64,000 bases of DNA, taken from positions 37,816,547 through 37,880,546 of the forward strand of contig NC_057719.1 in NCBI RefSeq assembly GCF_004010195.1. The letters run 5' to 3'. Source of the DNA: Chiloscyllium plagiosum (Eukaryota). How positions within the stretch are numbered: the first letter of the stretch is position 1; each line of letters begins with the position of its first letter. The position numbers and the translations under genes are program-made. Below are positions 2,068 to 55,235 of this stretch, piece by piece. The notes beneath the pieces are model-generated. The model saw only the letters and a program-made list of their open reading frames with translations. It was not told where the DNA came from and made no database searches.

Positions 2068-2168
2068 AAACAACAACAGAAATCGCTGGAAAAACTCAGC
2101 AGGTCTGGCAACATCTGTGCAGAGAAAACAGAGTTAACATTTTGGGTCCCGTGACCCTTCTTCAGAAG
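2068..2168 (-). mobile_element. Short PLE-terminus-like repeat (family 3) with a degenerate hammerhead
   Basis: Reverse complement reads CTGAAGA-AGGGTC-ACGG-GACCC-aaaatgttaact. Related copies at about 17650, 18270 and 49320. Confidence 0.65.
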
Positions 2169-2376
2169 AGGTTTGAAAGCTCACTGTCTAATCTGATGTG
2201 CCAGCGTCCAGAAACCCAAAGAAAGAAGTGTTGCCGCCTTTCCTTGAGTGAACTAAGAAGGTGACCCTGGTCAATGTTTCAGAAAAAACAGTTGCCTGTG
2301 AACAATGCACCATGAAGGATATTTAGGTAATCAGTTTTAATTATGCTTCAACTTTGTTTATTTCTGTCTTTTGTGT

Positions 2377-2751
2377 CAGAAGTCACATGACACCAGGTTA
2401 TAATCCAACAGGTTTATTTGGAATCATAAGCTTTTGGAGTGTTGTTCTTTCATCAGGTGAAGTGGAGGGAGATGCATAGGCTAAATAACAAATTGTTGCA
2501 AATGACCACCCTGTCGACACTCCACTCACACCATTTGTACTATCTTTTGACACACTTAATTACCTGGAATTTTCTTGCAATGATCTCTCTGCCTATAAAT
2601 TTCATGTCTGTCCACTTCTCTCTGCTTCACCTGACGAAGGAGCAGCTGTCTGAAAGCTTGTGATTTCAGATAAAACTGTTGGACTATAACATGGTGTTGT
2701 GTGATTTCTGACTTTGTCCACCCCAGTCCAACACTGCACCTCCACATCATG
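2377..2751. mobile_element. Fold-back PLE-derived insertion (family 2) with an 11-bp TSD
   Basis: Inverted arms at about 2375-2474 and 2605-2712, tail 2713-2751, TSD gtcttttgtgt at 2366-2376 and 2752-2762. Homologous to 53943-54187. Confidence 0.8.
2628..2662 (+). ncRNA. Putative minimal type I hammerhead ribozyme
   Basis: cac-CTGACGA-aggagcagctgtct-GAAAGCTT-gtg: stem I cac/gtg, AGCT palindrome, stem II partly decayed. Confidence 0.55.
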
Positions 2752-3074
2752 GTCTTTTGTGTGAATGGTGCTGAAAACAAATGTTTTGGGTTTAAAGCAT
2801 AGACGTGTCAGCTTACCATGCTGATTACATTTTCTCTCTGCTAATGTTAGTTTGTATTTAATAAATTGTTAAGTCTTTTGTTTAAGATACAAAACTGGTG
2901 TCTAGAAATTAATTATTCACAAAATCTGGGATTGGTTAATCAAAAGTCTAGTTAGGACCTGTTGGAGTGACTATTTGGGAGTCTTCAAAAGTTTAATTTT
3001 TCTGCATTGTGAATACAGAGGTATAAAATATCCTTTTGGTTCTGTCTCTGTTTTATAACAAGTCAGTTTGGAAA

Positions 3075-3434
3075 TCATAGAATCATAAAATCCATGCAAA
3101 AAGAGATCATTCAGGCCATTGAGTCTGCATGGTCTGAAGAGTATCCCACTCAAATCCATCTCCCCCATCCAGCCATATCCCTGAAACCCCAGATTGTTTT
3201 TTATTTTACCATGACTAATCCACTTAAACCACATCTCCCTGAACACTACTGGGTAATTTTTCTAGCATGACCAATCGACCTAACCCACACATCTTTGGAT
3301 GTGGGAGGAAACTGGAGCAGCCCCACAGAGACATGAGGAGAATGTGGAAACTCCACATACAAATGCCCAAGATTGGAATCGAACCTGGCTCTCTGGTACT
3401 GTGAGGCAGTAGCGCTAACCGCTGTGTCACCACG
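3075..3434 (-). mobile_element. HE1/V-SINE-type SINE, diverged
   Basis: Reverse complement is similar to 631-946 in head, core and tail. Confidence 0.8.
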
Positions 3435-4469
3435 TGTACAATATTAAACTTTTTTCATTATGCTTTATTGAATTAAGTTTTTTTTTCAACTTTAACCAGA
3501 ATGTCTGAGACCTCGTGCTTGACTATCTTGCTCTTCCTCTGTGATATCATTCTCCCCAATAATGCTATTGGCACATTAATAGTTTCATACTGAATTTAAA
3601 TTGATACTCAAGTCAGTAAGTATAATGTACAGATCTAAAACAAATGCGCACAAACTACTATACTTGATTTCAAGGGGGTCAGGTTGGTGATTCCTTGTTC
3701 TGTGGCCGAGTGCCATATTTTTGTAATTATATATTTAAAATAACAGAAGAAGATATGAAATTATTGGCCTAAATTTGCTTTTGTCTTTACATTCTGTTTC
3801 CGTATAATGTTCTTGGGTTTCTTCAGGATTTCCTTTTTTTTTTCCTTTTTCAAAGGCATGACAATGCAAAATCAGGTTTCTTCTGGTTAGAAAATCAAGG
3901 ACTAGAGGTCATAATCTAAATATTACTGCCTGGTTTTCTTTAGGAGTGAAGTTCAGAAGCATATTCAAAGGGTACTAGGAGCTTGGAATACTTCTGTAAA
4001 TGTTCAGTTGTTCATTTTAAATCCTAGGATTGTTCATTTTGTTTAATCCAAAGGTGGTTATAGGACAAAGTCAATGTGAATTAGGACACGCAAATTAGGT
4101 AGCTAATAAGCAGAATTATAGCACACACTCCAATGTCTAAATACCCTTTTTCTGTTTTGGTTTGGTTCTTGAGGTTTTTTTTGTAACTTCCATCTTCATG
4201 TGCGTGTTAATTTGATAGTTCTTATACATATAAGATTTACAAGTACAAGATATTATTTTCAAAATTCAGATGGACATTGACAATGTTAAGCTATCACCTT
4301 CAGCTTTTTTTAAAAAGATTCAACGATTTGACAATCACTTCAAGGCAAAGAAGGGTAAAATATTGTTTAAAATACTGTGAATAGAGGCCGTCCTGAATCT
4401 CCAGATTCTTTTCCTCGGAAAGTTTCTAAATCTGATGTAAACTTAATGCAGATGTAATTGCCTTTTCAG

Positions 4470-4916
4470 GAGTGCATTCACAATTAAACTCCCCGCTGAC
4501 AGTCAGCTCCAGGGAATCAGTTCAAGAAACAGTGATTGCAACAGACTCAAAAGAAATGCGAAGTGAAAATAAAACTTCAGAAACTGATCGGTTTGAAGCA
4601 CACCATTCGTCGTCTTCAGAACTTGAGCCAAATTTGAGTTCAAAAAACGAAATGGAAAGACATCCCTGGGACGAGACAGGAGAGGGAAGACATTCAGAAA
4701 CAAGTGAGCCAAGGAGCAGAAGCAGCTCTACAAACAGTGGTATTAGTGTTTTTAGCCATGTAACATCTCCGGAACAGCAGATAGGAGCAATTTCCTCGCC
4801 TGTAGGATTAACAAAGATTTCAGATTCTGCAGAAAGATTCAGAACAATGAACATGGAAGAATTCAACCAACAGCTCATTGTTGTTCCTGTAAAAAAGAAG
4901 AAGAAACGCAAGCAAG
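4470..4916 (+). CDS. TECPR2: TECPR2 internal coding exon A (447 nt; phase 1 in, phase 1 out)
   Basis: Acceptor ccttttcag|G, donor CAAG|gtat. Encodes SEPRSRSSS...EEFNQQLIVVPVKKKKKRKQ, matching the recalled human TECPR2 motifs SEPRSRSSS and EDFDQELVVKPIKVKRKKKKKK. Confidence 0.88.
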
Positions 4917-5183
4917 GTATTTTTTTAATATAACCTTTTCCGCCAACTCCAAACAGACCCCACCACCAGGGATATATTTCCCTCCCCACCCCTTTCCGCC
5001 TTCCGCAAAGACCGTTCCCTCCATGACTACCTGGTCAGGTCCACGCCCCCCTACGACCCACCCTCACATCCTGGCACTTTCCCCTGCCACCGCAGGAACT
5101 GTAAAACCTGTGCCCACACCTCCTCCCTCACCTCCATCCAAGGCCCTAAAGGAGCCTTCCACATCCATCAAAGCTTTACTTGC

Positions 5184-5323
5184 NNNNNNNNNNNNNNNNN
5201 NNNNNNNNNNNNNNNNNNNNNNNNNNNNNNNNNNNNNNNNNNNNNNNNNNNNNNNNNNNNNNNNNNNNNNNNNNNNNNNNNNNNNNNNNNNNNNNNNNNN
5301 NNNNNNNNNNNNNNNNNNNNNNN
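5184..5323. other. Assembly gap (140 N)
   Basis: Run of N. Confidence 0.99.
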
Positions 5324-5471
5324 GGGAGGGGATGAAGGTGTTAGGTCAGGGAGGAGAGGGTGGAGTGGATAGGTAGAAAAGAAGATAGGCACCCATTGTA
5401 CTCTATGCTACTTTCTCCCCACCCCCACCCTCCTCTAGCTTATCTCTCCATGCTTCAGGCTCACTGCCTTT

Positions 5472-5508
5472 ATTCCTGATGAAGGGCTTTTGCTCGAAAC
5501 ATCGATTT
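5472..5508 (+). ncRNA. Putative minimal hammerhead ribozyme, slightly mutated
   Basis: ttc-CTGATGA-AGGGC-TTTT-GCTC-GAAACATC-ga. Confidence 0.55.
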
Positions 5509-6282
5509 CGAAGCTCCTTGGATGCTGCCTGAACTGCTATGCTCTTCCAGCACCACTAATCCAGAATCTGGTTTCCAGCATCTGCAGTCATTGTTTTTAC
5601 CTCTTTGGCTTTATAACCCTTGTTGACTTCATTAATCTAAATTAAGGGTTATCTAATTTAAATATGCAAACCAGCACTGAGGACTTCAATGATAATTTGC
5701 AAAAACCTGAAGTGATGCTGTTGATATTTAATGACAGCCATCAAATTGGCATGCAACTTTTCAGAGTAGAATCAGATTTACTGCCTGCTAATTTGGACAA
5801 TTACAAGGCTATATTTCTAAGGTGGTTCTGCTTATTAATCTAATTATAATAAAAATAATGTGACACACATTCTCACAACTTGAACATTTTGGTGGGAAAC
5901 ACTGGAAAAGTGGTTGGAAAATTGATAATTGGATGGCATAAGTTTACTATCATGAAGAGAGAGAGAGAGAAGTTCAATTTTATTTTAAACTGGTTTGGAA
6001 TTGCTCTGTTCAAATATAGTAATGTGATCCATAATTTGGAGAAGTGCACATAATGCCATGGAAAATTTTACAGCATTGTTCTAGATGAATATGGTTTCTG
6101 TATGATGGAAGGAATTTTTTTGGCTCATTGAGGATTTTATTTTAATTAATAATTTGTAATACGATGCTGCAATTATATATTGTAGTTACAGGTAATGTAA
6201 AATTGCTTTTTGATCCGATTTTCTGTTTTCCTGCTGCAAAGTGTCTCTGTTTATGAATAATTGCATGTTGTTTGTCATACAG

Positions 6283-7304
6283 CAAGTTCTGGATCTGAAG
6301 GCAGTCTTGTAAAACATGAAATTGACTGTTCCAATAGTTCCCAAAGTTCAGAGCCAGCACTGTTGAGTGACTTTGCTTTTGATGGCTCCATAACCACAAC
6401 TTGTGACTTGTCTGATCAAATGAGTTTGTTGAGCAGCAGCCTGGATCACTTGATCACTGATTTTTCTGAACAAGAGAGCCAGATTGGTACAGAATTGGAT
6501 ACTTTTTTGCAAGAGGAGAGTAATTCCAATATTTTTGGCTCCATACAATCTCCTGAGTGTACATCAACATCACAGGATGACCATCTCCCATCAGACAGTT
6601 TAGCAGAATCTTTGAAGACTGCAACTACAATGAATGAAAATACATATTCCTCTGATTTACATTTTGCAGAATGTTTAGATACTGTATCTTCTGTCAAATT
6701 GGAAACTTTAGACAGTTCCTGCAATAAAAACAAAGACTGCAGAGGCGAGGTTTCAGTGTCAAGTTCTGAACCAGTACTTAGACAACAAGCAAATTTAGTT
6801 AACACTATGTTTGATGTGGTTTGCAACAGTGAACCTTTGGAATTAAGATCTCGAGATCCAGAAAAATCTGTGTTGTCTGGTGGCCTAAATTTGCAAGGAT
6901 CTTTAAGTGAAAGCTCAGAGTCTTTCTTGGATGAGCGTCATGCACTACTGATGAGAATTCTTTCACCAGACAAAGATCACAACAGACAAGAAATCAATGC
7001 ATTTTCACAGTTATGTGTGTCATACAATGTACCCAATTTATCAGACAGAACTGAATCTCCGCAACCTTTTGAAACTGTTTGTTCAGTTGATAATGCTATC
7101 ACTGACGAAAAGAAAGTCCAACAACAACTTTCATCTTCCAGTGATGATGAGGATATTTATGGCCATGGAGGACCTCCTTCATTATCTGAAACCAGTGTGA
7201 CTGAACACATTCTCACTTCTGATGCTGAAAAATCACAAGGTTCAGTTTTTCAAGATCTGAATACTTCTGTTTCAGATGAAATGGAGCTTTTAAAATCGGA
7301 TCAG
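6283..7304 (+). CDS. TECPR2: TECPR2 large coding exon B (1022 nt), Ser/acidic linker
   Basis: Acceptor tttgtcatacag|CA, donor CAG|gtgaag; lies within ORF 6261-7337. Phases match the neighbouring exons. Contains SSSLDHL..SEQES and SSDDEDIYGHG..SETSV, similar to human TECPR2. Confidence 0.9.
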
Positions 7305-7457
7305 GTGAAGCAAAATCTATATTTGTTTTTCTTTTAATGTTTACTCTTGAAATTAAAAATTCATAAATTACATTTGTTCTATTTTTAATTATCATCTGTT
7401 CTTTAATGTAACATGTTACCAAAGAAAAAGCAGTTGGCCAGGTAAGCACATGACATT

Positions 7458-7752
7458 GATTAGATTAGATTAGATTACTTACAGTGTGGAAACAGGCCCT
7501 TCGGCCCAACAAGTCCACACCGACCCGCCGAAGCGCAACCCACCCATACCCCTACATTTACCCCTTTAACCTAACACTACGGGCAATTTAGCATTGCCAA
7601 TTCACCTGACCTGCACATCTTTGTGACTGTGGGAGGAAACCCACGCAGACACGGGGAGAATGTGCAAACTCCACACAGTCAGTCGCCTGAGTCGCGAATT
7701 GACCCCGGGTCTCTGGCGCTGTGAGGCAGCAGTGCTAGCCACCGTGCCGCCC
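7458..7752 (-). mobile_element. HE1/V-SINE-type SINE
   Basis: (agatt)n tail and reverse-complement head ending accgtgccgccc. Confidence 0.9.
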
Positions 7753-7980
7753 ACAAATTATTTATTTAAGAGTTTTGATGGCAATTACAAAAGTTTGAAA
7801 TATTTTTGTCAGTTCTATGAATTCATTGTTAACTTAAATGTGGAAACTGAAAAACTTATTCTTGAATAAGGCGCATATGTTTTGAAATGAGAACATAGAC
7901 ACTGGTTCTTGAAAGGACAAGAAAAAGAGGAAAATTCATACTGAAAAAATAATTGACTTCTGTTTATTTGGTGTTTTTAG

Positions 7981-8164
7981 TTTGCTGAGAGCTGGATGGG
8001 TTACTCTGGCCCGGGCTATAATATCCTCAGCCTTGTGGTCTCTGAGAAGCATGTCTGGTGTTTAGACTACAAAGGTGGACTATACTGTAGCCCATTTCAT
8101 GGTACAAGTTTGCGGTGGCAGAAGTTTGAGGATGGTGTACAACAGGTGGCTGTATCACCATCAG
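7981..8164 (+). CDS. TECPR2: TECPR2 exon C (184 nt), start of the tectonin repeat region
   Basis: Acceptor gtgtttttag|, donor TCAG|gtcagt. Translates FAESWMGYSGPGYNILSLVVSEKHVWCLDYKGGLYCSPFHGTSLRWQKFEDGVQQVAVSPS. Confidence 0.96.
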
Positions 8165-8445
8165 GTCAGTGAAAAAATGGTGTTGCTCTGTTGTGCAGAA
8201 TTCCAGATATTTGTGGAATCGAAGATAGGAACTTGTCAGCTCTCTCATTATACATTTCTAATAGAATATAAATTATGTACACGCAAATAGTTAAAAAGTG
8301 CTTGAGGGAGAATGTAGGTAATTGTACAATTAAAATATATTCTGCGCCTTGTTTGCAAAGCATATATTGATTAAACTAAAACCTCTAAAACCTCCTGTAT
8401 TTTAATTTTAGACATCTTTGGAATTATTTTACTTTTTAATAACAG

Positions 8446-8619
8446 GTGTGCTGTTATGGAAGATTGAACAAAAATCAAGCAAAGCTTTTGCCTGTGCTAA
8501 AGTGACAATGAAAGGGAAGAGACATTGGTATGAGGCTCTACCAAATGCTGCATATGTTGCTTTAAGTGATGACACTGCATGGATCATCCAAACTAATGGA
8601 GAACTCTATCTACAAACAG
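8446..8619 (+). CDS. TECPR2: TECPR2 exon D (174 nt)
   Basis: Acceptor taacag|GT, donor ACAG|gtagat. Translates (G)VLLWKIEQKSSKAFACAKVTMKGKRHWYEALPNAAYVALSDDTAWIIQTNGELYLQT. Confidence 0.96.
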
Positions 8620-9271
8620 GTAGATACAAACAGTGATGCATTTATTATTGCAATCATGGATATTATCTCATCAAAGTGTTCGGAAATGCTACTGAACACA
8701 ACTGGAACAGGTGAGACTTGAACTTAGTCCTTCTGGCTCAGGGATAGGACAGTACTACTGTGCCACATGAGCCCTTATTATTGCAGTCATGTGCTTGCAG
8801 CAGAAAGTGTTTTCCTCAGTAGGTATAATTAATCATTCACAGATTCCATCAAAACCGTGTTTCTCCTTAGTCGGTGCACTGTTTACTGCACAATTGAATG
8901 TGTTTAAAATAAATATATTTAACATTTATATTTCTATAGTTTATTTCGCAATCTCTGGCTGTGCTGTCTTTAGGCAATCCCATGAATTGGTTGTGTCCCC
9001 AGTAAATTAGGAAAATTAGCAAGATATTGCACTTAAAAAGAAATAGGACTTTTAAATTTTAAAGGCAATTTCTAAGGCCTATTGCATGATTATACATAGC
9101 AGAGAGGTTGGGACAAATTAAATAACTCTTTCAAAAAGACAAGTTGGACATCTGGGATGAACGTGTTATGTGATCTTGTGGAGGCCCAGCCTATAGTACT
9201 TTATCATACTAAATGAATATTGTAGGAAAAGCTTGAGCTTTTCCATTTAGGTTGGTGCCATTCTTTGCTCA

Positions 9272-9845: not shown

Positions 9846-9849
9846 AGAA

Positions 9850-10545
9850 CACACCAGATGGCCTCCTCCTTCAAAGATTGTGATTTCCCTTCCCACGTGG
9901 GCGACAACGCCCTCCAGTGCATCTCCACTTCCCGCATCTCCGCCCTTGAACCCCACTCCTCCAATCACAACAAAGACAGAACCCCTCCAGTCCTCACCTT
10001 CCACCACACCAACCTCCATTAGAGAGACAGGGCACCAACTTGCGAAATGTTTAGAGAATATCTCTGGTACACTCACACAGAACAAACCCACCATCCTGTG
10101 AGTGAACACTTTATCTCCCCCTCCCACTCCGCCAAGGACATGCAAGTCCTGGGCCGCCTCCACCACCAAACTCTAGCCACCCAATGCCTGGAGGAAGAAC
10201 GCTTTGTCTTCTGCCTTAGGACCCTCCTGCCACACGAGATCAATGTGGATTTCATCAGTTTCCTCAGTTGCCCTCCCCCATCTTGTCCCAGATTTAACCT
10301 TCCAACTTGGCACTGTCCTATCTTGCTTCCCACCTTTCCACTTCATCCTCCTCTCTGACCTATCACCTTCACCCCAACCTTCATCTACTTATTGCATTCC
10401 CAGCTACCTTCCCCCTCCAGCCCCACACCCCTCCCATTTATCACACAGCCCCCCTTGGGCGACTCCCTCATTCCTGATGAAGATCTTATGCTCAAAACAT
10501 TGACTGTTCTGCTCCTGTGCTTTTCCAGCACCACACTCTTCAATC
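9850..10545 (+). mobile_element. Penelope-like element remnant with a GIY-YIG endonuclease C-terminal region
   Basis: IRETGHQLAKC/FREYL...PVSEHFISPSHSAKDMQVLG...LEEERFVFCLRTLLPHEINVDF, then a pyrimidine-rich UTR and a decayed hammerhead (CTGATGA at 10474). Confidence 0.8.
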
Positions 10546-11970: not shown

Positions 11971-12039
11971 CACTTTTCAATTCTGAAAGTGGAAGCATTT
12001 GTACAAACTTGTAAATGGGCCAATAAATCATAGGGTGCC

Positions 12040-35552: not shown

Positions 35553-36385
35553 AGTCATAGAGTCATAGAGATGTGCAGCATGGAAACAGACCCTTCGATT
35601 CAACCCGTCCATGCCGACCAGATATCCCAACCCAATCTAATCCCACCTGCCAGCACCTGGCCCATATCCTTCCAAACCCTTCCTATTCATATACCCATCC
35701 AAATGCCTTTTAAATATTGCAGTTGTACCAGCTTCCACCACATCCTCTGGCAGCTCATTCCATACACGTACCACCCTCTGCATGAAAATGTTGCGCCTTA
35801 GGTCTCTTTTATATCTTTCCCCTCTCACCCTAAACCTATGCCCTCTAGTTCTGGACTCCCCGACCCCAGGGAAAAGACTTTGCCTATTTACCCTATCCAT
35901 GTCCCTCACGAATTTGTAAACCTCTATAAGGTCACCCTTCAGCCTTTGATGCTCCAGGGAAAACAGCCCCAGCCTGTTCAGTCTTCCCCTACAGCTTAAA
36001 TCCTCCAACCCTGGCAACATCCTTGTAAAACTTTCCTGAACCCTTTCAAGTTTCACAATATCTTTCCGATAGGAAGGAGACCAGAATTGCACGCAATATT
36101 CCAACAGTGGCCTAACCAATATCCTGTACAGCCGCAACATGACCTCCCAACTCCTGTACTCAATACTCTGACCAATAAAGGCAAGCATATCAAACGCCTT
36201 CTTCACTATCCTATCTACCTGCGACAAAGCTTTCAAGGAGCTATGAACCTGAACTCCAAGGTCTCTTTGTTCAGCAACACTCCCTCGGACCTTTACCATT
36301 AAGTGTATAGGTCCTGCTAAGATTTGCTTTCTCAAAATGCAGCACCTCGCATTTATCTGAATTAAACTCCATCTGCCACTTCTCA
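35553..36385 (-). mobile_element. Young CR1 3' portion with a largely open ORF2 C-terminus
   Basis: ORF 35637-36386 contains RDLGVQVHSSLK, LLEYCVQFWSP and QRVVRVWNELP; (agagtcat)n tail. Confidence 0.95.
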
Positions 36386-37537: not shown

Positions 37538-38758
37538 GTCATAGATGTCATAGAAACATACAGAACAGAAACAAAGCCTTTGGTCCAAACTGTCCGTGCT
37601 GACCAGATATCCTAAATTAATCTAGTTACATTTACCAGCATTTGGCCCATACCGCTCCAAACCCTTCCTATTCATATACCCATCTAGATGTCTTTTAACT
37701 GTTGTAATTGTACCAACCTCCACCACTTCCTCTGGCAGCAAATTCCATACATGTACCATCCTTTGTGTGAAAATGTTGCCCCTTAGGTCTCTTTTATATC
37801 ATTCCCCTCTCACCCTAAACCTATGCCCTCTAGTTCTGGACTGCCCCACCCCAGGGAAAAGATCTTGTCTATTTACCCTATCCATGCCCCACATGATTTT
37901 ATAAACCTCTATGAAGTCACAACTCAGACTCCGATGCTCCAGGGAAAATAACCCCCACATATTCAGCCTCTCCCTATAGCTCAAACTGTCCATCCCTGGC
38001 AACATTCTTGTAAATCTTCTCTGAACCCTTTCTAGTTTCACAATATTCTTCCTATAGCAGAGAGACCAGAATTGAATGCAATAAGCAATGTCCTGTACAG
38101 GTGCAACATGACCTCCCAACTCCTGTACTCAATGTACTGACCAATAAAGGCAAGCATACCAAACACCACCTCCACTGTCCTATCAACCTGCAACTCCACT
38201 GTCAAGGAACTATGAACTTGTACTCCAAGGTGTCTTTGTTCGGTAATACTCCCCAGGACCTTACCATTAAATATATAAGTCCTGCCCTGATTGGCCTCTC
38301 CAAAATGCAGCATTTCCCATTTATCCAAATTAAACCCCATCTGCCACTCCCCAGCCTACTGGCCCATCTGATCAAGATCCTGTTGTACCCTGAGGTAACC
38401 TCCTTTGATGTTCACTACACCTCCAATTTTGGTGCTATCTGCAAACTTACTAAACTATGTTCGCATCCAAATCATTTCTATAAATGATGAAAAACAGTGG
38501 ACCCAGCACCGATCCTTGTGGCACACTGCTCGTCACAGGACTCCAGTTTGAAAAACAACCCTCCTTCACCACCCTCTGTCTTCTACCTTTGAGCCAGTTC
38601 TATCTCCAAATGCCTACTTCTCTCTGTATTTCTAACCTTGCTAACCAGCCTCCCATGAAGAACTTTGTCGAATGCCTTATTGAAGTCCATATAGATCACG
38701 TCCACTGCTCTGTCTTCATCAATCCTCTTTGTTACTTTTTCAAAAAACTCAATCAAGT
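37538..38758 (-). mobile_element. CR1 RT plus 3' portion
   Basis: NLIEFFEKVTKRIDEDRAVDVIYMDFNKAFDKV, continuing to the 3' UTR. Confidence 0.92.
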
Positions 38759-41290
38759 TATAGGGCAAATTGGGGAATTGAGTCGGGTTGGAAGACTGTT
38801 AGTTAATGAGGTAAATTAGATTAAAGGATCCATCAATTGAGATGCTGTGGCAGGCACTTGAGGGGTATTTTAAAATATGCAGAATAGATATTAGGAGCAT
38901 CGGATTCTGGTTTGTGGGGCATTGGCACCTGTGCTGGGAAAGTGAGGTCTCAGCCAATGTGATAGTCTTGTGCTGGGCCAGTATTCTTGCCACCCATAAG
39001 ACTATGGAAGTAGCGATGGGGCAAGAGGTGAAATTTGGAAAGATGTGATCTATCAAAGAGCAGATCCAAGGCCAAAGAGAAAGTTATTTATAAGGGACGA
39101 GGTAAACCAACCACGATGGGGAGGGAAGTAATGTGTGAATCTCAGAGTAATGCGTCAGATAAGATGAGAATTTGCAAAGAGTAAAAGTAGAGGCAGTGTA
39201 TCATTACACACACAGCATTGAAAGCAAAACAAATTAACTGAGAGCACAAGTGGAAATGAAATGAATAAATATGATCTGATAGCCATCCCAGAGATATGGC
39301 TGCAGCATGACATGGATTAAGATCTCAGTATTGAAGGGTACAGGAAATATAAGAAACTAAGAAAAGGTGGTTCTGTTAGTTCATGATGGAATTAGCATAA
39401 CGGAAAGGGATGACCTGTGTTCAGGAAAGCAGGATATGGAAGTAGTTTGGCTAGAAATCAGAAATGATAAAGGCAAGGATTAACTTGTGTGAGTGGTGCA
39501 CAAGACCACCTAATAGTAACCATATGGTAGGGTGGAGCACAAAGGAAAAAATAGTGAGAGTTTAGCAGAAAAACATCATGATAATTATGGAGATGTTAAT
39601 TGATACATGGACTGGAAAATTCAAAGATATCTTGGTGAGTTTGTGGAATATCATTAGGATAGTTTCTTAAGGCAGCATGATCTCAAGTTGACCTGAGAGT
39701 AGACTATTTTGCATTGAGAGAGGATTAGTTAATGATCTTATAGTGAAGGCACCTCTAAGTAGCAGTGGCTATAATATAGTTGAATTTTATGTTCAGTTTG
39801 TAGATAAGAGGTGTGGGTTTGAAACTATTCTTTAAAACTTAACTAAGGAGAATAAAAGATCTTAAAAGCAGAACAATGAGGTAGGTTGGCAAGTTAGGTT
39901 AAAAAATACATCAATCAAAATGCTGTGGCAGGCACATGAGGGGTATTTTAAAATACACACGAATAGATATTATACACCTGAGTAAGAAATATTTCAAGGG
40001 ACAGACCGACTATCTGTTAGTAACTAGAAATTGTCAAACATAGCACCAAATGAAGGAAAATCATTTAATTATGCAAAGACAAGTGGCAAGTCAAAAGATT
40101 AGACAGAATATTAAACAAAAAACACAAACAGACCAAAAAATAATTAGAAGGCAAAGCTATCCAGAATTATAACAGTCATTCAATGAAAATAGTTAACAAA
40201 ATGAACGTTCTATGAAAAGTGAGATGGATAATTAATAAGGAAACTTGGAGAATTGGCAGATAAGTGGAATGGGTATTTTGCATCAGCCTTTACGATCGAA
40301 GATATCACGAATAGTGTTAAATCAAGAAGTAGAAGGGAAGGGGGAAGGACCTCAGGAAAATCACAATCACCATAGAAGCAGTATTGAGTAAATTGTTGGA
40401 GCTGTAGACTGACAAGTGCCTGGATTCTGATGACTTTCATCCGAGGCTGTTAAAATAAGTGGTTACTGAGATAGTTGATGTATTGGTTTTAAGTTTTCAA
40501 AGTTTCCTTGTTTCAGGATGTTCCCATTAGATGGAAGATTGTGAGTCCATCTCCTTTATTCAACGGGAAGGAAAGGAAGAGAAAGCAGAAAACTTAAAGT
40601 TAATGAAATTAACATCTGTCATCGACAAAATGTTAGAAACTATTAAAAAAGGCTACAGCAGTACACTTGGATATGTTAAAGGTAATGAGGTAGAGACAAC
40701 ATAGTTTGTGCAAGTGAAGTTTTGTTTGACCAGTCTTTTGGAGTTCTTTGAGGAGCTAAAACCTACTGTTGATAAAGAGGAACTAATGGATGTGACGTGC
40801 TTTGATTTCCGGAAGGCATTTGATAAGGTACTGCATCAAGGCTATTGCAGAAAATAAAATCTCAAAATGTAGGGAGTGACATATATTAGGATGGCTAGAA
40901 GATTGGCTAACAGGAAGCAGAGTAGACATAAATGGGTCGTTTTAAGTTAAGCAAGATGTAAAGAATAGTGTGACACAAGGATCAGTGCTGAAATCTGAAC
41001 TGTTTTCAATTTATACTTACATGAAGAGACAGAAGGTGTGGTTGCCAAATTTGCTGATGAAGCAAAGGTAGATAGCAAAATAAATTGTGAAAAGGATACA
41101 AGGAGGTTAAAAAAAATAGCGGTAGGTTAGGTGAGTGAACAAATGTATGGAATATGGAGTATAATGTATGAAAATGTGAACTTGTCCATTTTGGCAGGGA
41201 GAATAATGAAACAGCATATTATCTAAGTGGTGAGAGATTGCAAAACTCTGAGATGCATAAGGATTTGGGTGGTCTCTTGCATGAATGACA

Positions 41291-41520
41291 AAAGTTGAAA
41301 CTTTATTGCTGGAACAGCACAGCAGGTCAGGCAGCATCCAGGGAACAGGAGATTCGATGTTTCGGGCACAGGCCCTTCTTCAGGAAAGGACCTTTCCTGA
41401 AGAAGGGCCTGTGCCCGAAACGTCGAATCTCCTGTTCCCTGGATGCTGCCTGACCTGCTGTGCTGTTCCAGCAATAAAGTTTCAACTTTGATCTCCAGCA
41501 TCTGCAGACCTCACTTTCTC
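41291..41520. mobile_element. Fold-back PLE-derived insertion (family 1b): 99-bp inverted arms, 31-nt tail, 16-bp TSD
   Basis: Palindrome 41291-41489 centred on 41390 with one mismatch; TSD catgaatgacaaaagt at 41280-41295 and 41521-41536. Confidence 0.92.
41394..41427 (+). ncRNA. Minimal type I hammerhead ribozyme motif, intact core (mirror copy on the - strand)
   Basis: ttc-CTGAAGA-A-GGGC-CTGT-GCCC-GAAACGTC^gaa: stem I ttc/gaa, ACGT palindrome, predicted GUC cleavage after 41424. Confidence 0.72.
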
Positions 41521-42334
41521 CATGAATGACAAAAGTAAGGTACAACAAGTAATTCGGAAAACTAATAGAATGTAATAATTTTTTGAGAGAGAAATTGATT
41601 TCAAAAGTAGAGAGGTTAGCTTCAGTTAGACAGAGCACTGATGTGACCATGTCTGGAGTACTGAGTACAGTATTGATTACCTTATTCAAGGAAGGATTTA
41701 CATACATTGGAGGCAGTTCAGGGAAGATGTATCAAACTGATAGTTGGAATGAGTGGGTTGTCTTATGAGGATAAGTTGGACAAGCTAGGCTTGCATTTGA
41801 GTTTAGCAGAGTAATAGGTGACATTATTGTAACACGAGAGAAGTCTTGGCATGGTAGATGTGGAGAGAAAGCTTTACAAATGTCAGTGTTACAAAATAAA
41901 TGTCATCCATTTAAAACTGAGAAGAGATTTTTTTCTCAGAGGATTTTGAGTCTTTGGAACTCTTCCTGAAAAGATGTTGGGTTCATAGATCTTGAATGTT
42001 TTTAAGCCAAAGGTAGCCAGGTTCTTATTGGGCAAGTGGGTGAAAGGTTATTAGAGATTAGTGTAAATGTGGATTTGAGTTTACAATTAAATGAGCCATG
42101 ATCTTATTGAGTGGTGGAACAGAGTTGAATTTAACATTCAATTTCAGAGGCAGGAACTTGAGTCAGAAGCAACACTGCTAAGCTTGAATAGGGTTTTACA
42201 AAGGAATGAGGGCAGACTTGGGTGCAGTGGATTGTGAAAGGAGCTTAGCAGCAACGATAGTTCAGGAACAATAGCAGATATTGAAAAAACAAATCCGTTA
42301 AATGGCCTGTTCCTCTAGTTTGTATGTTCTGTCT

Positions 42335-45594: not shown

Positions 45595-46400
45595 AATTAC
45601 GTTATATTGAGAAAGTAGTGGTGAGCTGCTGCCCTGATCTGCTGCAGTCTTTGGAATGTAGGGGCATCTGCAGTGCTGCTGGAAGGGAGTTTCAGGATTT
45701 TTACCAGCATTAGTGAAGGAATAGTGAAATTTCGACTCAGAATGGTGTGTGGTTTGGAGGGAAACTTACAGGAATTCCCATGCGTCTTGTCCTTCTGGTG
45801 GTAAAGGTTGTGAGCTAAGAAGGTGCTGTCAGAGGAGCTTTGGTGAATTACTGTGGTGTGTCTTGTAGACAGAACACTGTATGTTGATGGTGAAAGGGAT
45901 GAATATTGGAAGGTAGTGGATGTGGTACCAATAAAGGGGGTGTTTTGTCCTGAATTGGAGCTCCTTGTACGTTCTTGATTTGTACCATGCAGCCAAGTGG
46001 AAATTATGCCATCATATTCATGCCTTGTGCTTTGTAGATGATAGATGAGTAGTGGGGATCCAGGAGCTAAAATATTCTCCACAGAAGTCCTAGCACCAGA
46101 CCTGCACTCGTAGCCATGGTATAGAGTAGATCCAGAGGTAAAAACAATGACTACAGATGCTGGAAACCAGATTCTGGATTAGTGGTGCTGGAAGAGCACA
46201 GCAGTTCAGGCAGCATCCAAGGAGCTTTGAAATCGACGTTTCGGGCAAAAGCCCTTCATCAGGAATAAAGGCAGTGAGCCTGGATCCAGTTCAGTTTCCA
46301 GTCAGTAGTAACCCCTAAAATGTTGACAATGGGTTTTCAACATATAATACCATTGAACATCAAGAGTATTCTCTCTCATTGGAGATGGACATTATCTAAT
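45595..46400 (-). mobile_element. LINE family B fragment hosting a PLE-terminus insertion
   Basis: Reverse-complement similarity to 22080-22750. Confidence 0.7.
46134..46282 (-). mobile_element. Short PLE 3'-terminus insertion (family 1a) with an intact hammerhead core
   Basis: Nearly identical to the reverse complement of 5456-5604; reads CTGATGA-AGGGC-TTTT-GCCC-GAAACGTC. Flanked by gatccag at 46129-46135 and 46283-46289. Confidence 0.85.
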
Positions 46401-48360: not shown

Positions 48361-48480
48361 TCCTACTGCTCATGCACCTTTAAGAAGTGTACTCCTTATA
48401 ATTTGTAGGAAATCTCTGTTGAGCTCTGTTGCATTTAAAAGGAAGGTACAGAATTACAAGGGAGAAGGGTGTAGAGTCAT

Positions 48481-48702
48481 AGAGGTAAAAACAATGACTG
48501 CAGATGCTGGAAACCAGATTCTGGATTAGTGGTGCTGGAAGAGCACAGCAGTTCAGGCAGCATCTAAGGAGCAGCAAAATCGACGTTTCGGGCAAAAGCC
48601 CTTCATCATTCCTGATGAAGGGCTTTTGCCCGAAACGTCGATTTCGCTGCTCCTTAGATGCTGCCTGAACTGCTGTGCTCTTCCAGCACCACTAATCCAG
48701 AA
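48481..48702. mobile_element. Fold-back PLE-derived insertion (family 1a): 90-bp arms, 38-nt tail, TSD
   Basis: Arms 48519-48608 and 48613-48702, loop ttcc, one mismatch. gtagagtca duplicated at 48471-48479 and 48704-48712. Confidence 0.9.
48609..48642 (+). ncRNA. Minimal hammerhead ribozyme motif, intact core
   Basis: tc-CTGATGA-A-GGGC-TTTT-GCCC-GAAACGTC^ga. Confidence 0.68.
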
Positions 48703-48703
48703 A

Positions 48704-49292
48704 GTAGAGTCACAGCATCGTAGGGATGTACAGCACAGAAACAGTCCCTTCGGTCCAACCCGTCCATGCCGACCAGATATCCCAAACCAATCTAGTCCCC
48801 CTTGCCAGTACCTGACCCATTTACTTCTAAACCCTTCCTATTCGTATTCCCATCCAGATGCCATTTAAATGTTGCAATTGTACCAGCCTCCACCATTTCC
48901 TCTGGCAGCTCATTCCATACCCGTACCACTCTCTGTGTGCAAAAGGTTGGCCCTTAGGTCCCTTTTATATCTTTCCCCTCTCAGCCTAAATCTTATCCCT
49001 CTAGTTCTGGACTCCCCCCTCCCCTACCCCAGAGAAGAGACTTTGTCTGATTCCTGAAGAAGGGCTTATGCCCGAAACGTCGATTCTCCTGTTCCCTGGA
49101 TGCTGCCTGACCTGCTGCGTTTTTCCAGCAACACATTTTCAGCTCTGATCTCCAGCATCTGCAGTCCTCACTTTCTCCACTTTGTCTGTTTATCCTATCC
49201 ATGCTTCTCTTAATTTTGTAAACTTCTATAAGGTCACCCCTCAGTCTCCGATGCTCCAGGGAAAACAGCCCCAGCCTATTCAACCTCTCCTG
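48704..49292 (-). mobile_element. CR1 3' fragment, interrupted at 49050-49178
   Basis: NRLGLFSLEHRRLRGDLIEVYKI plus 3' UTR. Confidence 0.9.
49050..49178 (+). mobile_element. 129-bp PLE-terminus insertion (family 1b) beginning at a hammerhead motif, with a 10-bp TSD
   Basis: attc-CTGAAGA-A-GGGC-TTAT-GCCC-GAAACGTC; TSD actttgtctg at 49040-49049 and 49179-49188. Confidence 0.9.
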
Positions 49293-49319
49293 ACCTAAAC
49301 AGTCTGCTTATATATAATA

Positions 49320-49530
49320 AATCAAAGAACTACCGATACTGGAATTCTGAAACAAAAACAGAAATTGCTGGAAAACTCAGCAAATCTGGCATAATCTTTG
49401 CAGAGAGAGCAGAGTTAACATTTTAAGAAGGTGAGTTCTTCAGAATTGATAGTAGCAGTATATAAAGGTGGTATATAAGCTGAAGACAAGGAGTGGGAGT
49501 GTGGGGAAGGAGTGAATGAATAGGTGGCAA
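49320..49530 (-). mobile_element. Old PLE-terminus-like repeat (family 3)
   Basis: Similar to 2068-2168 (gctggaaaactcagc...cagagttaacatttt...ttcttcagaa), plus a purine-rich extension. Confidence 0.55.
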
Positions 49531-50479
49531 TGGAGTCCAGAAGACCTGCATCTGTACTTTGAAATTTTATTCCATTCTAATTCCTTAGCCTGGTCAATTT
49601 GCTACTTGTTCCCTCTTGTTGTATATTGCTTAGATTTAAATAGCAACACAGAGTGAGTACAGTGATGTCACTGATTGCATTTGAAGCTGTGAACCATAAT
49701 TTATTTTTCCAACGTTCCATTCTTTCATTTCCCCATACTAAAATCCACTTTTCTCATTGCTTGAGATCAGTAAGTATTGTCTCATTTGGAGCTGTGATTC
49801 CATAAGTGCAGTTTTTTTTGTGTGTAACCTTAGAGATTTGGGTAGCCTGTTTGACTGCAAAAAGTGAGCACAGTTTTTACCTTTGCCAGCATCGGTATGC
49901 ACACTTTACAGTAGAGGATTGTAAATGTGACCCAAATGATAGAACATAAAGACTGGTGGATTACTTTTCCCATTATCAAATTCAGGTCACTGAGGATAAT
50001 TGTAGCTTCTGCTATATTTCACTGGTTGAGATCAATTAAATTTACTACAGAGAATAGGTACTTTTTAAATTTATATCATTTACTGAAACTCTGAATAATT
50101 TACTTTGAAGGATACCCTAAAGTCTATTTTTAAAGCTTAATATTAAAATAAGCCTGTTCGTGAGTCATATTAAAGTTCAAACCATACTTAGAGTAAAATA
50201 TTCATACTGAGGACCAAATGGTATTCCTGATAGCTTTATTTAGAAACAGCACTGGCATTGTTTCACAACGCAAGTCCGCAAGTTGGCTACATTGAAGATG
50301 GTATGGAAATCTATGTCACTTGTAAATGTAACTCTTACACCACATTTTGTCCTAACTACTGCATGGCTTTGTAACTGATGCAAGTGATTTTCAGTACACC
50401 TTGGGTTTTCTGCACCTGTACAGATCAACTTTATCCAGAGTAACTGTTGCAAAGTTAATTAAGATTGTGGATCTCAGAC

Positions 50480-51665
50480 TGAATAGGGTAAGCCACCTGC
50501 ATATAAGAAATAAAAATTGTTACAAATGGGGTTCATAAAGTTCCGGTAAGGGCTATAATGGAAAGCGAAAGACAAGGGTTTACCCAAATTCAGGCAGCAC
50601 TGACACCTGATGAGAGATTAGATTGATTAAGACTGCATTGTGTTACGACAAGAGGTAAACCCTCCTGCTTAATTTAAACCAGCAACATGGAAAAGATCTA
50701 CCCTATGTAGTAACCTGTGAAAATTCGAGAGGCCAAGAACTATTTAACGTAAAAATTAACAACTTCTTAAAGTATAATAAAGAATAATCAACTAACAACT
50801 ATTTACAACTCTAACCTATCTTTTACTTTCCCTTCTATAATATTAGTCTGATTAAAACCCAAGATTAAGATTTACCAAAAATTTAAATTTTCAAAACCAG
50901 CCAGATGTCGAATCTTCACTTATATCTTCCTCAGTCTTCTTTTCTTCTTCTTAGGGATTACTGTTTCACAGGTTACTGATCAATAAAGGACCTTTAAGAG
51001 AGCTATTCTCCGAGCAGTCTGCAGATGCTGGTGGCTTAGCAGTTCTCCTCCCAACTGTTCAACTTTCTCCGGTCTAATACCCCCAAAGCATCTGATTGTG
51101 TCATTGGCTTTTAAGATTGTCAATATACTAAATTCAACTTGATTGGAGTTTGGTATTTTTGGGGGTATAAATTAAATTGATTGGCCTAATTCAAATTTGT
51201 TTTGTCTCCAGGCAACCAGCTACCCTGGCTGCTGGACCACATTACATTCTATCTTGTTCAGAACATTTGGTGCTGTCAGGTAGTTCTGCTCGCTTTTAAC
51301 TCTCTTAAAGGTACAGTGCATCCACATCTTCATGATGATTGACTCGAGTTTAGAAAAATGAAGGAGCTTAAAAAATCGTTTAAAATTCTAACAGACTAGA
51401 TAAGGTAAACACAGGAAAGATGCTCCTGATGACCAGCGCGTTCAGAATCAGGGCTCGCAGTCTAAAAATATGTGGTGGGCCATTTCGGACTTAGATGAGG
51501 AGAACATTCTTCTCCCAATGAATGATAAGTCTGTGGAATTCTCTGCCACAGAATTCTCTAGAGGTCTAAAATTTGAATGTTTTCAAGAAGGTGTTAGATG
51601 TAGTAGTGATTTGGATCATCAGATCGAATGGCAGAGCAGGCTTGAAAAGTTGAATAACCTGTGCT
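50480..51665 (+). mobile_element. Old CR1 3' fragment split by a solo LTR
   Basis: gattaagactgcattg|LTR|actcgagtttagaaaaatg resembles the LGL.SLEFRKM region. Confidence 0.7.
50641..51337 (-). mobile_element. Solo LTR, same family as 20225-20922, with a 4-bp TSD ATTG
   Basis: Starts tgttacgaca; attg at 50637-50640 and 51338-51341; reverse-complement homology to 20225-20922. Confidence 0.85.
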
Positions 51666-53942
51666 TCTCTGGATTTGAGGAGATTTTGCGTTAAGAAAAC
51701 GACAATGAGAAGATAGTGAGAGCTGATGTATGGTTAATCTTGCATGGTTTCCGTTGCAATTATTCATGGGTACTATTTCTGGCCCACTGCCTTAGCACAA
51801 TATCAGTGGACATGAGGTTAGTTTCTATATTTATACCAAATTTATCCCACTCTGTCTCATCCTGGCATTTCTACTGCTCCAAAACAGAAAAACACTAAAG
51901 AATGAGAAGTGACCAAAACCCACTCAGAGCTGATTTTCTTGTTTGAAGAGTCTTTAAGAATATTGATCTTCTGATAATATTTATCAAAGGTACTAGACTA
52001 ATTAGTTAAACTCCTTGTGAGCAGCTGTTTACAACCATTAATATCCAAATTTGAGTTCCTAAATTATTTGTATCAACATTTCAGGCAATATTAACATTAA
52101 TGCTTCCCAACTTCCTTTCATGTTCCATACAGACTCTTAAACAAATAAAATTAATTATTTCTTGGTAATTTATTGAAGTCAGCCAATATTCAGGAACTAA
52201 AGTTAGAATCATAGCTGTTGTTAATGTAAACATTGATTAGGAAAATAATTAGGTTCCGAAGGTTTGGTTGCAGTGATTCGGCTTTAACTATTAACTGATG
52301 GACAATCTGCAGTTGAGTTTTAAGGTGAATATAAATTGGTGAAATTAATATTAGATTGAAGAATTGATAACAGCACTAGATAACCAGAATATTAAATAGA
52401 TTAAACCCTATGTGTTAGTAGTTAGCAATGTTAGCAGAGCTTCTGTGACCTGGTCTTTATGAGCTGATGTGGTTGAGTGGTATTAGCCTTCTGAGACATT
52501 ATAGGTATGAACCTCTATTAGTGCTAGATTCCCTGCTTCTAGCTAAGTTTGTCTTATGCCCTGGTAACCATATTTGAACTAACTACCTTAAATTTCACAT
52601 TTAATTAATCTTTTTGACTGGGGAAGCTGTACAATCTTAACATATGTGATCTCCCCACCCTTAGAAATGCACATTCCTATTTTAGACATAGCTGCCCATA
52701 TAACCAAAGTAATACAAGCTGAACCAGAAACTGAAGATGCAACTTCACTGTCAAAAACATTATTGTGCTCATATACAATTTCCAAATTAAATTCATCATT
52801 TGTCTGACATATTGGAAGAGTTCAATGCTCTTGTGCCAATTACCTTACAAAGTCCTATTCATAACCATCCAGATAACATCAGATTAATGTGACACCATAA
52901 CTTGGATATGCCAGATTACTTGTTCATTCCTTGCATCAGGCCTTTGCGAAGAAACAATCTCCAGTCTGTAATTATGATTTTAATTTTGTTGTACCTAAAA
53001 TTACCTTCCAGCACGTAATCTTCAGCATTGTAGTCAGAGGTGATATTGACAACTATGATCTGGCAGACTAACTAAGCATTTGCTTTGTAAATGACCTTTG
53101 TAAGATTAAAAGTGCCATTCTGAAAGTAGGTTGAGAAAACTGGCCCCTTGCATTATCTAAGCATGCATTGTGTATGATAATTTTCATTAGGTTTTTCTTT
53201 CAGTTCAAAACTCAACTTTCGAGTGGTTTTTAAAAATTTACCATATTGTTGATTATCTCAAGTGATGAATTGTAAAGCTAGACGTTTTTCATGAAGCTCT
53301 TGGACTTTAGATCTGTGTGAAGTTTTGTGTCACCTAGGAAATATTTTGGGGTCTTGTAACAAGGTATGTCTATGAGTGGACATGTAGAGTCCTTACATGC
53401 ATCAACAGGACCGTCTAGATGTTATCTAATATGTAGAGTGCTTAGGAGTGCCATTAGGATCGAACAATTGCTCCTAACTTAAGAATGCTGTACAGTAAGA
53501 CTTGATCTATATTCATCCAGGGTTCATTTATTCTAGTTAATTCAGTATTTTATGGACAACTTTTACATAGTAAAATAGTCAGGCTGTAATCATCCTTTCA
53601 TAATTTAAAAAAAAATCTCAAATTCAAATGTCAGGAATTGATTTGAGTGGATTTGTCAATAGGGAACTTCAGAAGTAGTATTTATGATTGAAATAAATAG
53701 AAGTTTGTTTATTTGCAACATTGATAAATATCAAAATGTTTTTAAGTCAAGATAAGTAAGTCTTGCAGCAAATGAGTGAACTCCGTCTCTGCGATAAAAA
53801 TAACTAAAAGTAATTCAATAAAACTGCAAACTTCTTGGCTATTTGAGTGCTCCACGGAAAATAATCCATGCATTCTAGTCTCACACATTTTGAAGGCCTT
53901 TCGTCCACAAGGCATATTTAGTAGCACGTTGCTTTTAGAACA

Positions 53943-54187
53943 TGATTTGGAGATGCCGGTGTTGGACTGGGATGTACAAAGTTAAAAATCACAACAGGTT
54001 ATAGTCCAACAGGTTTAATTGGAAGCACACTAGGTTTCGGAGCGACGCTCCTTCATCAGGTGATAGTCCTTCATCAGGTGACTATCATCAGGACTATCTC
54101 CTGATGAAGGAGCGTCGCTCCGAAGGCTAGTGTGCTTCCAATTAAACCTGTTGGACTATAACCTAGTGTTGTGTGATTTTTAGCTTT
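53943..54187. mobile_element. Fold-back PLE-derived insertion (family 2) with a 12-bp TSD and two hammerhead-like motifs
   Basis: Arms 53978-54070 and 54090-54187; TSD gcttttagaaca at 53931-53942 and 54183-54194. CTGATGA-AGGAGC-GTC-GCTCC-GAA..CTAGTG occurs on both strands. Confidence 0.9.
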
Positions 54188-55235
54188 TAGAACACTTTTT
54201 CCACCTACGTAAGCTGGAATTCTTCTATTGAAGGTAATTATTGTGTAAATGTGTAACAGTCAGCATGTGACAGCAAGTTTTCAAAGGGAGTATCGATGTT
54301 TTTGTTAGGAAAATTCTCTTCACTGAGATTTTATTACATTTATGGCAGTTTCTTATCTGTAGAAAATCTGTTGTACTGAATGAGCCATCAGTTCACAGTC
54401 CCAATTAATCCTGGTTTTAGCACACTATGATTTATTTCTTTTGGAAAACAAAATCAAGCATTACACTGGAGACAAGAAAAAAATTGTCCGAGAAGCAAAA
54501 AAGGAAATATGACAAGTTAAATAATCAAATTCCCTTCATCCTAAGGCCTCAACGGTTTACATGGGCTTAGAACTAAACAAAACAACACAAGTCAAATATT
54601 TTGCTAAGCTGATGCTACTTGAATGTAGTCCACACTCCTTATGGCCATGGTGGTTTGTTTGTGATTTGAAACCGTGCAACTTCATTACATGTTCAGATTT
54701 CGGATCTTTCTTGGCACATGCTAATGCATCAACTAAATAATGCAATGCTAAGGGAAGTATAACCAAGTTACCAAAAGACTAGATGTGACTATTTTATTGG
54801 TTGTTTGTATTCATTCTGATCCTGTAACTTTGTTTCACTGTGTTTAGAACAATACTTAGATTAAAGCAGCATCTCCCATTCTGACCCACCCTGAAAGCCC
54901 ATGAATTATTTTCTGGTGCACAAGTCATTGCAAAATAGTTAGACTTTCCTTGGCGGTCTGTAGTTGTAAAAGAGGGGTAGTTTGCTCTTATATGCCTAGA
55001 TGTAACTCCAGACCCACAGCAATACAGTTGATCCTTAACGTCCTCTGAAATGGCCAAGTTAGCCACTGCAAAGAAGTCAAATTAGAATAAAACCAGACTT
55101 TAACTTGGACACAGAAAAGATAATGGCAACCCCACCTAGCTGACCTGCAAATTCCTCCTCACTAACACCTGAGGATTTGTACCAACATTGAGAGAGCTGT
55201 CCCATAAACTAGTGAAGCAACAATCTAACAGAAGT

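Follow-up and report, generated by a model that had tools for sequence, protein, structure and literature searches.

Short insertions with minimal hammerhead motifs in a shark genome: leader copies of Penelope-like elements with a fixed 5' edge and an extra G

The stretch of 64,000 nucleotides analysed here, referred to as the window, belongs to the genome of the shark Chiloscyllium plagiosum (assembly GCF_004010195.1, contig NC_057719.1, positions 37,816,547 to 37,880,546). It contains ten insertions that carry intact or decayed motifs of a minimal hammerhead ribozyme, derived almost certainly from Penelope-like elements (PLEs). Copies limited to the ribozyme-bearing terminus, here called minis, occur singly or as head-to-head pairs. 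Their 5' ends are not random truncations, as a fixed edge is found 4-8 nucleotides (nt) ahead of the ribozyme core, often preceded by an extra G.

Insertions and host gene in the window

Positions within the elements are numbered by assigning 0 to the C of the CUGA box. Family labels are those of this analysis, and 'arm' indicates a single copy of the terminus on one strand. The ten insertions comprise 14 arms, distributed over four head-to-head pairs, four short solitary copies and two remnants bearing pieces of PLE open reading frames (ORFs) and of untranslated regions (UTRs), one of them with part of the reverse transcriptase (RT). They are listed below, after the host gene.

4436-47348, plus strand: host gene, candidate exons at 4436, 6261, 7981, 8412, 23135, 25054, 29817, 36810 and 47172
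2072..2171 (approximate ends), minus strand: solitary family C terminus without tail, identified by BLAST against the family C reference (positions -2 to +90), decayed core at 2165; a 7-nt duplication, about 2064-2070 and 2172-2178, was read by eye
2379..2751, plus strand: family B2 insertion, inverted tail-less arm (2379-2469) and forward arm (core 2631) with tail, stem II partly decayed; identified by arm pairing, a 13-nt target duplication with one mismatch and the motif match
4936..5604, plus strand: family A1 PLE remnant, coding piece at 4938-5183 (RT-endonuclease linker; 98% identity to the PLE ORF of locus L093), assembly gap at 5184-5323, terminus (core 5476) with tail
9850..10545, plus strand: older PLE remnant of family A, retaining parts of the RT thumb and of the GIY-YIG domain (72% and 57% by tblastn against the L093 ORF), 3' UTR, decayed core at 10474 found by a looser pattern, no tail
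41291..41521, both strands: family A3 head-to-head palindrome, tail-less minus arm (core 41383) and tailed plus arm (core 41397), both stopping at -3; arms of 99 nt, 99% complementary; exact 16-nt target duplication
46134..46282, minus strand: solitary family A1 terminus with tail, intact core at 46262, 5' end at -20; 7-nt duplication read by eye
48483..48702, both strands: family A1 palindrome, tailed minus arm (stops at +1, lacking the first core bases) and tail-less plus arm (intact core 48612); arms of 90 nt, 99% complementary; 12-nt target duplication with one mismatch
49050..49178, plus strand: solitary family A2 terminus with tail, intact core at 49054, starting at -4, the preceding G being the last base of an exact 10-nt target duplication (49040-49049 and 49179-49188); inserted in a LINE (long interspersed nuclear element) remnant
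49353..49544, minus strand: decayed family C copy, about 95 nt of 3' UTR and a damaged core; 72% to the family C reference by BLAST
53943..54185, both strands: family B1 palindrome, tailed minus arm (core 54059, starting at -8 after a G) and tail-less plus arm (core 54101, GAAA changed to GAAG); exact 12-nt target duplication; filler made of repeats of the -8 to +9 unit

The host gene lies on the plus strand and encodes propeller repeats (Hyd_WA, E 7.8e-08); we take it to be similar to TECPR2. No exon was found between 47348 and the end of the window at 64000. The cores at 5476, 10474, 41397 and 46262 are located between candidate exons, and the remaining sites, outside the first and last exon found, are probably intronic as well. 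The A1 PLE remnant begins about 19 nt past the likely splice donor of the exon at 4436-4916, and the piece following its assembly gap (5324-5389) is a PLE 3' UTR segment inverted within the remnant.

The initial annotation had described these insertions as an intronic system. A genome sample was collected, formed by sixty 10-kb stretches at round-number positions of 22 large contigs, for a total of 572,259 non-N bases. In this sample 50 hits of a structure-aware hammerhead descriptor were obtained, against 0-3 in ten shuffles, and 192 arms were found within 149 insertions, i.e. one insertion per 3.8 kb. Since this density exceeds that of the window (ten in 64 kb, one per 6.4 kb), a system specific for introns is not supported. 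One 32-nt tail motif alone has 29,917 exact matches genome-wide.

LINE 3' remnants and tRNA-like copies of short interspersed nuclear elements (SINEs) are also numerous in the window (189-602, 619-953, 35558-36299, 37547-38262, 48711-49290), and presumably correspond to the families named HER1 and HE1.

The hammerhead motif

The structure-aware descriptor, which requires stem II, detected the motif at 2631(+), 5476(+), 41397(+), 41383(-), 46262(-), 48612(+), 49054(+) and 54059(-). A single further match, at 41054, is unrelated and attributed to chance; in 100 Markov shuffles the mean number of matches was 0.28 and the maximum 2. A looser pattern gave 11 matches against 0.61 expected, adding 10474(+), 54101(+) and the mirror arm at 48586-48609(-). 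The sites of the initial annotation are thereby confirmed, far above chance. The same is true of its two decayed versions, the first recovered at 10474(+) by the looser pattern, the other located at 2165(-). Its list had overlooked two mirror arms (2379-2469 and 48483-48608) and the decayed family C copy at 49353-49544.

Stem II varies from family to family in a paired fashion, as GGGC/GCCC, GGAGC/GCTCC or GGGTC/GACCC, and helix III is replaced by ACGT or AGCT; both features had been correctly described. The TTC/GAA pairing proposed for stem I is found in family A3 only, while A1 and A2 carry TTC/GAT, with a mismatch at the third pair. The conserved core, stems I and II and the palindromic remnant of helix III are those of the minimal PLE hammerhead, and the assignment to several families of minimal type I hammerheads is supported. 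A MAFFT alignment of 22 motifs left family B out of register. The core is kept across families while the stems change, a sequence pattern which points to selection in the parent elements. An Rfam scan of the window revealed no hammerhead model at E <= 10, and Rfam is not a test for the minimal form.

At least four more terminus families (D-G), with other stem II sequences, were encountered (loci L046, L075, L037, L050 and L085), one of them featuring an extended stem II; at L046, positions 4190-4340, a tandem 35-nt unit is contained within an inverted arm.

Core and palindrome are unchanged in only four of the 14 window arms (41397, 46262, 48612 and 49054). Two of these lie within hairpins of 90-99 bp and one is antisense to the host gene, so that 49054 is the sole intact, unpaired motif on its sense strand. 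According to folding, mirror copies form long perfect hairpins, and when two copies are folded together the lowest-energy form differs from a hammerhead dimer. Cleavage of these insertions as dimers, previously suggested, is not supported, and no case was seen for ribozyme activity of the inserted minis. The palindromes at 41349-41431, 48573-48649 and 54015-54145 score weakly as microRNA precursors in Rfam, all under the gathering scores, and such palindromes are a likely source of false microRNA calls.

Relationship to Penelope-like elements

Sequences located upstream of the family A termini encode RT motifs, visible in L096 and L099 although the RVT_1 score is weak (E 0.084), and a GIY-YIG domain (Pfam PF01541, E 5e-05, above cut-off, in L093). 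GIY-YIG-like C-termini precede the termini of families B and C too. The PLE origin proposed in the initial annotation is borne out by these findings, which also exclude that the termini belong to transposons with terminal inverted repeats, as they are attached to PLE frames. Equally supported is the statement that most copies consist of the terminus only, the share of minis being overstated by assembly gaps in long copies and by the exclusion of arms beside N.

The window coding piece at 4938-5183 is part of a high-copy ORF, with 72,458 candidates genome-wide. Both this piece and L093 contain a CX4CXXC linker, which fits the CX2-5CXXC motif that marks Neptune and Nematis between RT and endonuclease (PMC8557442). 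Pfam searches detected nothing in three short window coding pieces, and no complete intact PLE ORF was recovered among the loci examined. From the sequences available, autonomous Neptune-type PLEs appear to be the best explanation for the parent elements.

In L097, L124 and L044 the tail continues into the N-terminus of the ORF, the first in-frame Met being located about 36 nt beyond the tail. The terminus, i.e. the hammerhead and its tail of about 35 nt, is therefore the 5' leader of the next unit's reading frame, recurring after the 3' UTR. Partial tandems (pseudo-long terminal repeats, pseudo-LTRs) are seen in L097, where 3' UTR, ribozyme and tail are followed by the ORF start, and in L124, where the order is leader, ORF start, 3' UTR and second terminus. 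A partial-tandem model of PLE units has been described (PMC2377424).

Other arrangements of long copies were also noticed. In L115, L127, L101 and L140 the ORF and the terminus meet directly, at -10 to -65, with most of the 3' UTR skipped, and similar skips, to about -4, occur at contig joints. L048 and L051 contain a long family B 3' UTR with CA-rich repeats, and form inverted pairs with arms of more than 400 nt.

The 5' edge and the extra G

The 5' ends were evaluated in sets chosen regardless of where copies begin, namely random stretches and copies picked by their tail only, at an identity of at least 88%; arms beside N were dropped and starts beyond about +52 are not seen. For A2/A3, 80 of 110 arms start within -6..+11, 50 of them at -6..-1 and 30 at 0..+11; 5 more fall at -13..-7 and none at -30..-14, the rest being located further up (11) or further down (14). 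B1 arms begin at -8..+10 in 50 of 86 cases and at or beyond -30 in 20, and the A1 distribution is looser (30 of 68 at -9..+10, 14 beyond -30). A splice acceptor as the source of the edge was considered and rejected, the template having no AG there.

The base found ahead of these starts was then determined. In the element itself the base preceding -4 (A2/A3) or -8 (B1) is C, which the search patterns forbid. B1 at -8 has 1,480 genome matches; the first 100 listed include 16 long copies altered by a point change, and the remaining 84 carry 73 G, 7 T and 4 A. For A2 at -4 there are 5,155 matches, the first 100 listed having 60 G, 24 A and 16 T. Compared with an expectation of one third, binomial p values are 3e-24 (B1) and 4e-8 (A2). 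If junctions are removed in which the base might come from the partner arm or from a duplicated unit, G still accounts for 25 of 31 (B1) and 42 of 68 (A2). As a control, G was found ahead of 13 of 56 starts at +25..+33 among the matches listed (Fisher p 1e-5). A scripted evaluation of stored loci found G in 10/12 starts at -4 versus 0/17 at -3. Some palindromes have the extra base on both arms.

Within B1 the G is found ahead of four sequence variants, and it is found independently in A2. Since copies have unrelated sequences upstream, the G is no subfamily variant. At both start points the base is an A, in a pyrimidine-A context similar to the initiator of RNA polymerase II, a consensus which is weak in sequence of this kind.

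A defined RNA 5' end at -4 or -8 is considered very likely. An extra G at the 5' junctions of full-length L1 insertions has been read as the mRNA cap (PMC11702581); in the shark elements too the G would, on the basis of these junctions, probably represent the mark of a copied cap, and the RNA end at -4 or -8 the capped one.

Several observations weigh against this interpretation. The G counts for B1 and A2 were made by eye. A1 gives no signal at -4 (1/15), and its G at -8 (4/4) comes from a set chosen as palindromes; in addition, the interval -23..-12 contains the ends of 6 of 68 A1 arms. A frequent G is likewise seen ahead of A2/A3 starts at -1 (5/7) and -7 (5/5), cases tentatively ascribed to partner-arm microhomology and to an A3 variant, respectively. 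The data would also fit a C that the enzyme adds wherever it runs off its template, a reading which still needs an RNA end at that position. In favour of the edge, the depth of raw RNA reads in run X21 rises about 8-fold there; these reads lie on both strands and show loose ends at -4, which are present in two contig runs too. Both features are confounded by the divergence of subfamilies upstream of -4, whereas the junction-defined ends are not affected. In the sole informative RNA run, a poly(A) single-cell library, no pile-up of starts was seen. In D. virilis the start is located 46 nt and an intron upstream of the ribozyme (PMC2377424, PMC4209133); as this layout differs, the shark one is not general.

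In the literature searched, which included few subscription papers, no report was found of a fixed ribozyme-adjacent 5' edge or start, or of a cap G, in PLEs, nor of shark PLE hammerheads; the supplements of the bioRxiv retrozyme study, outside this search, may list shark families.

Structure of minis and mirror pairs

The 3' ends of the minis fall in two groups, at about +80-94 and +115-128. Of 43 pairs, five were left out of the tail count because the references lack a tail; 36 of the 38 assessable ones combine a tailed and a tail-less arm, and none has two tails. Target duplications, mostly of 12-18 bp (range 8-21 bp), were found for 24 of the 43 pairs by a finder used without control. For solitary arms, 12 of 106 passed a target-duplication search against 3 of 150 in the control, too few to be used alone.

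The arms of a pair differ in reach and are joined by filler or microhomology. In A1 palindromes, collected by using a palindromic query, 26 distinct junctions were found among 30, and a subfamily variant is common to both arms in 28 of 29. Because most junctions are distinct while the arms share their variant, pairs seem to be made anew at each insertion. That the minis are PLE-derived and the pairs built at insertion is regarded as nearly certain.

Some junctions deserve a separate description. At 54064-54093, L160 and L158 the filler consists of two to four repeats of roughly the initial 18 nt of the B1 leader; the window and L160 contain the same filler join. This filler is suggestive of renewed priming where the template ends. 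Of the 100 matches listed, 7 share a single identical A3 junction: one arm extends to -4 and is connected to +28..+32 of the other via stem I complementarity, and a cap-derived base would extend the match to 5 nt.

The predicted ribozyme cut would generate 3' products beginning at +28 (family A), +29 (B1) or +30 (C). Starts at +25..+32 are flat among the matches listed (7, 6, 11, 10, 6, 10, 4 and 5), seven further +28 cases, sharing one junction with stem I microhomology, and three cases with N or internal deletion having been set aside. All ends in +24..+34 amount to 988 matches, obtained with a filter keeping about a third, compared with 5,155 at -4 alone by a narrower pattern. A peak at +28 (5/31), suggested by a smaller sample, did not hold in the larger one. 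Since most cDNAs extend past the cut site, and ends near it are flat and few relative to -4, ribozyme-cut RNA is a minor template at most.

Formation of the minis

These data are probably best accommodated if minis are run-off copies of a capped, uncut leader RNA, primed from both target strands as by-products of autonomous PLEs. The PLE transcript would start at the edge (-4 or -8) and be capped. The PLE protein would nick both target strands and start reverse transcription at two internal leader sites; two such sites, with both target strands nicked and extended, are known from a lizard PLE in vitro (PMC11167929). Each cDNA would run for 90-135 nt up to the cap, often gaining a C opposite to it. 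A single cDNA would yield a solitary mini, while a palindrome would result when two cDNAs lose a few bases and become linked through microhomology or filler. Long ORF-bearing copies would derive from read-through tandem transcripts. The template would mostly be left uncut by the ribozyme, and minis would be dead ends, with ribozymes as passengers, mostly buried in hairpins when the host gene is transcribed.

The initial annotation had considered either extreme 5' truncation or non-autonomous ribozyme retroelements. The first is half right: copies are short at the 5' side, but they stop at a fixed edge with an extra G, better fitted by run-off at an RNA 5' end. In an ordinary truncation, RT on longer RNAs would stall at the folded or protein-bound ribozyme, and the G would reflect a joining preference. 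Heavy 5' truncation is known for PLEs (PMC8557442), and the 30 of 110 A2/A3 arms at 0..+11, the 14 further down and the microhomology at many junctions would agree. A fold, however, should halt the enzyme at its 3' foot, around +31, and not after passage; moreover the edge is sharp upstream, and each family shows its G enrichment at a single position, with none at -3 or +25..+33. Truncation is therefore considered unlikely.

Independent elements, similar to retrozymes or SINEs, would be copied from mini masters and inherit the G from a founder. Non-LTR retrozymes do derive from PLE termini (bioRxiv 10.64898/2026.07.22.740005), a head-to-tail dimer of the B1 terminus, which is the layout of a non-LTR retrozyme, exists in L157, and the many exact matches of one tail motif would be consistent with amplification. 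Nearly all junctions differ, however, which speaks against it, and the arms carry the parent's subfamily variants; the G stands ahead of four B1 variants and A2 with unrelated upstream sequences. Furthermore, minis lack the sequence beyond the tail that the lizard protein needs (PMC11167929). The window copies are solitary or head-to-head, rather than head-to-tail tandem units with a ribozyme each, and no arrays are formed. Independent elements are thus very unlikely, and this second proposal of the initial annotation is not supported.

For rotifer PLEs, self-priming on an antisense template or snap-back of the first cDNA has been suggested (PMC3846280). The mirror arms could also arise in this way, and the subfamily variants shared by the arms are what a copy of a copy would exhibit. 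Against this, the arms are of unequal reach and joined by filler or microhomology instead of a hairpin loop, the short arm stops at +85-90 like solitary copies, and the extra base may be present on both arms, which favours a capped sense template. Such an origin appears highly improbable. Miniature inverted-repeat DNA transposons resembling a hammerhead by chance would be short, palindromic, flanked by duplications and very abundant too, but they have a negligible probability, being refuted by the same termini attached to RT-GIY-YIG frames, and the insertions have unequal ends, with a tail on one side only, varying centres and duplications of 8-21 bp rather than of fixed length.

Comparison with known systems

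Minimal hammerheads, as single or opposite-strand motifs, were described in the pseudo-LTRs of metazoan PLEs (Cervera and De la Pena 2014, PMC4209133). The shark motifs share with them the type I core, an extra base before stem II and a palindrome in place of helix III, as well as the presence of several families per genome, mostly as single motifs from truncated PLEs with some opposite-strand pairs. They differ in having a stem II of 4-5 bp; in its accessible text that study includes no shark family and maps neither insertion ends nor a transcript start. PMC6155905 and PMC8969392, as far as accessible, add nothing on sharks.

Known PLE insertions (PMC8557442, PMC3846280) feature an inverted 5' copy in head-to-head orientation, a tail of 30-40 nt at one end, partial tandems and target duplications, the inverted-plus-tail layout being that of the 36 tailed/tail-less pairs; here most copies contain the leader only, and both arms stop at one edge. 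Unlike the antisense self-priming of PMC3846280, the extra G points to a capped sense template. Poseidon PAc of Anolis (Frangieh et al. 2024, PMC11167929) similarly has two internal RT start sites defining the tail, and uncut RNA as main template, with no sign of cleavage in vivo. Its ORF starts inside the ribozyme, whereas in the shark the first in-frame Met follows the tail; neither a transcript start nor a cap signature is reported in the accessible text.

Non-LTR retrozymes (bioRxiv 10.64898/2026.07.22.740005, where one chondrichthyan was sampled) are likewise short non-coding units with type I hammerheads, related to PLE termini, but are arranged in head-to-tail tandems, in contrast to the dispersed solitary copies and head-to-head pairs, each made separately, of the shark. 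Full-length and twin-primed L1 insertions (PMC11702581) share an extra 5' G, in L1 derived from the cap, and would share a second priming from the other target strand, which leads to inversions. Priming of L1, however, takes place at the poly(A) end, and the piece that becomes inverted comes from another region of the RNA, whereas in the present case both primings would be internal and copy the same leader.

The ribozyme motif, the inverted-plus-tail layout and PLE-derived retrozymes are thus already known. No mention was found in the literature searched of a 5' edge fixed at the ribozyme, of the additional G, or of minis interpreted as copies of the whole leader.

Implications

The formation of head-to-head copies, the template strand and the role of the ribozyme are stated as open questions in PMC3846280 and PMC11167929. 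Should the extra G derive from a cap, the genome would document, in a very large number of copies, a capped, uncut sense leader as template and arms primed separately, and would also provide exact start sites. Because the start would lie atop stem I, a ribozyme cut would remove the cap and, in tandem read-through RNA, would separate the units.

A more tentative possibility may be envisaged. The start being on or just before the first stem I pair, the ribozyme could act as a self-decapping switch, removing the cap together with about 32 nt, so that only capped, uncut RNA would be copied. The telomerase-related RT would slip back at the cap, re-copying the first 8-18 nt several times, as suggested by the repeated units at 54064-54093, in L158 and L160, and in the B1 matches listed. 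If this were true, hundreds of thousands of minis would constitute a fossil map of PLE start sites, and the question of sense versus antisense template would be settled. For the host, the 43 or so long perfect hairpins per 572 kb may represent a large potential source of double-stranded RNA in transcribed regions.

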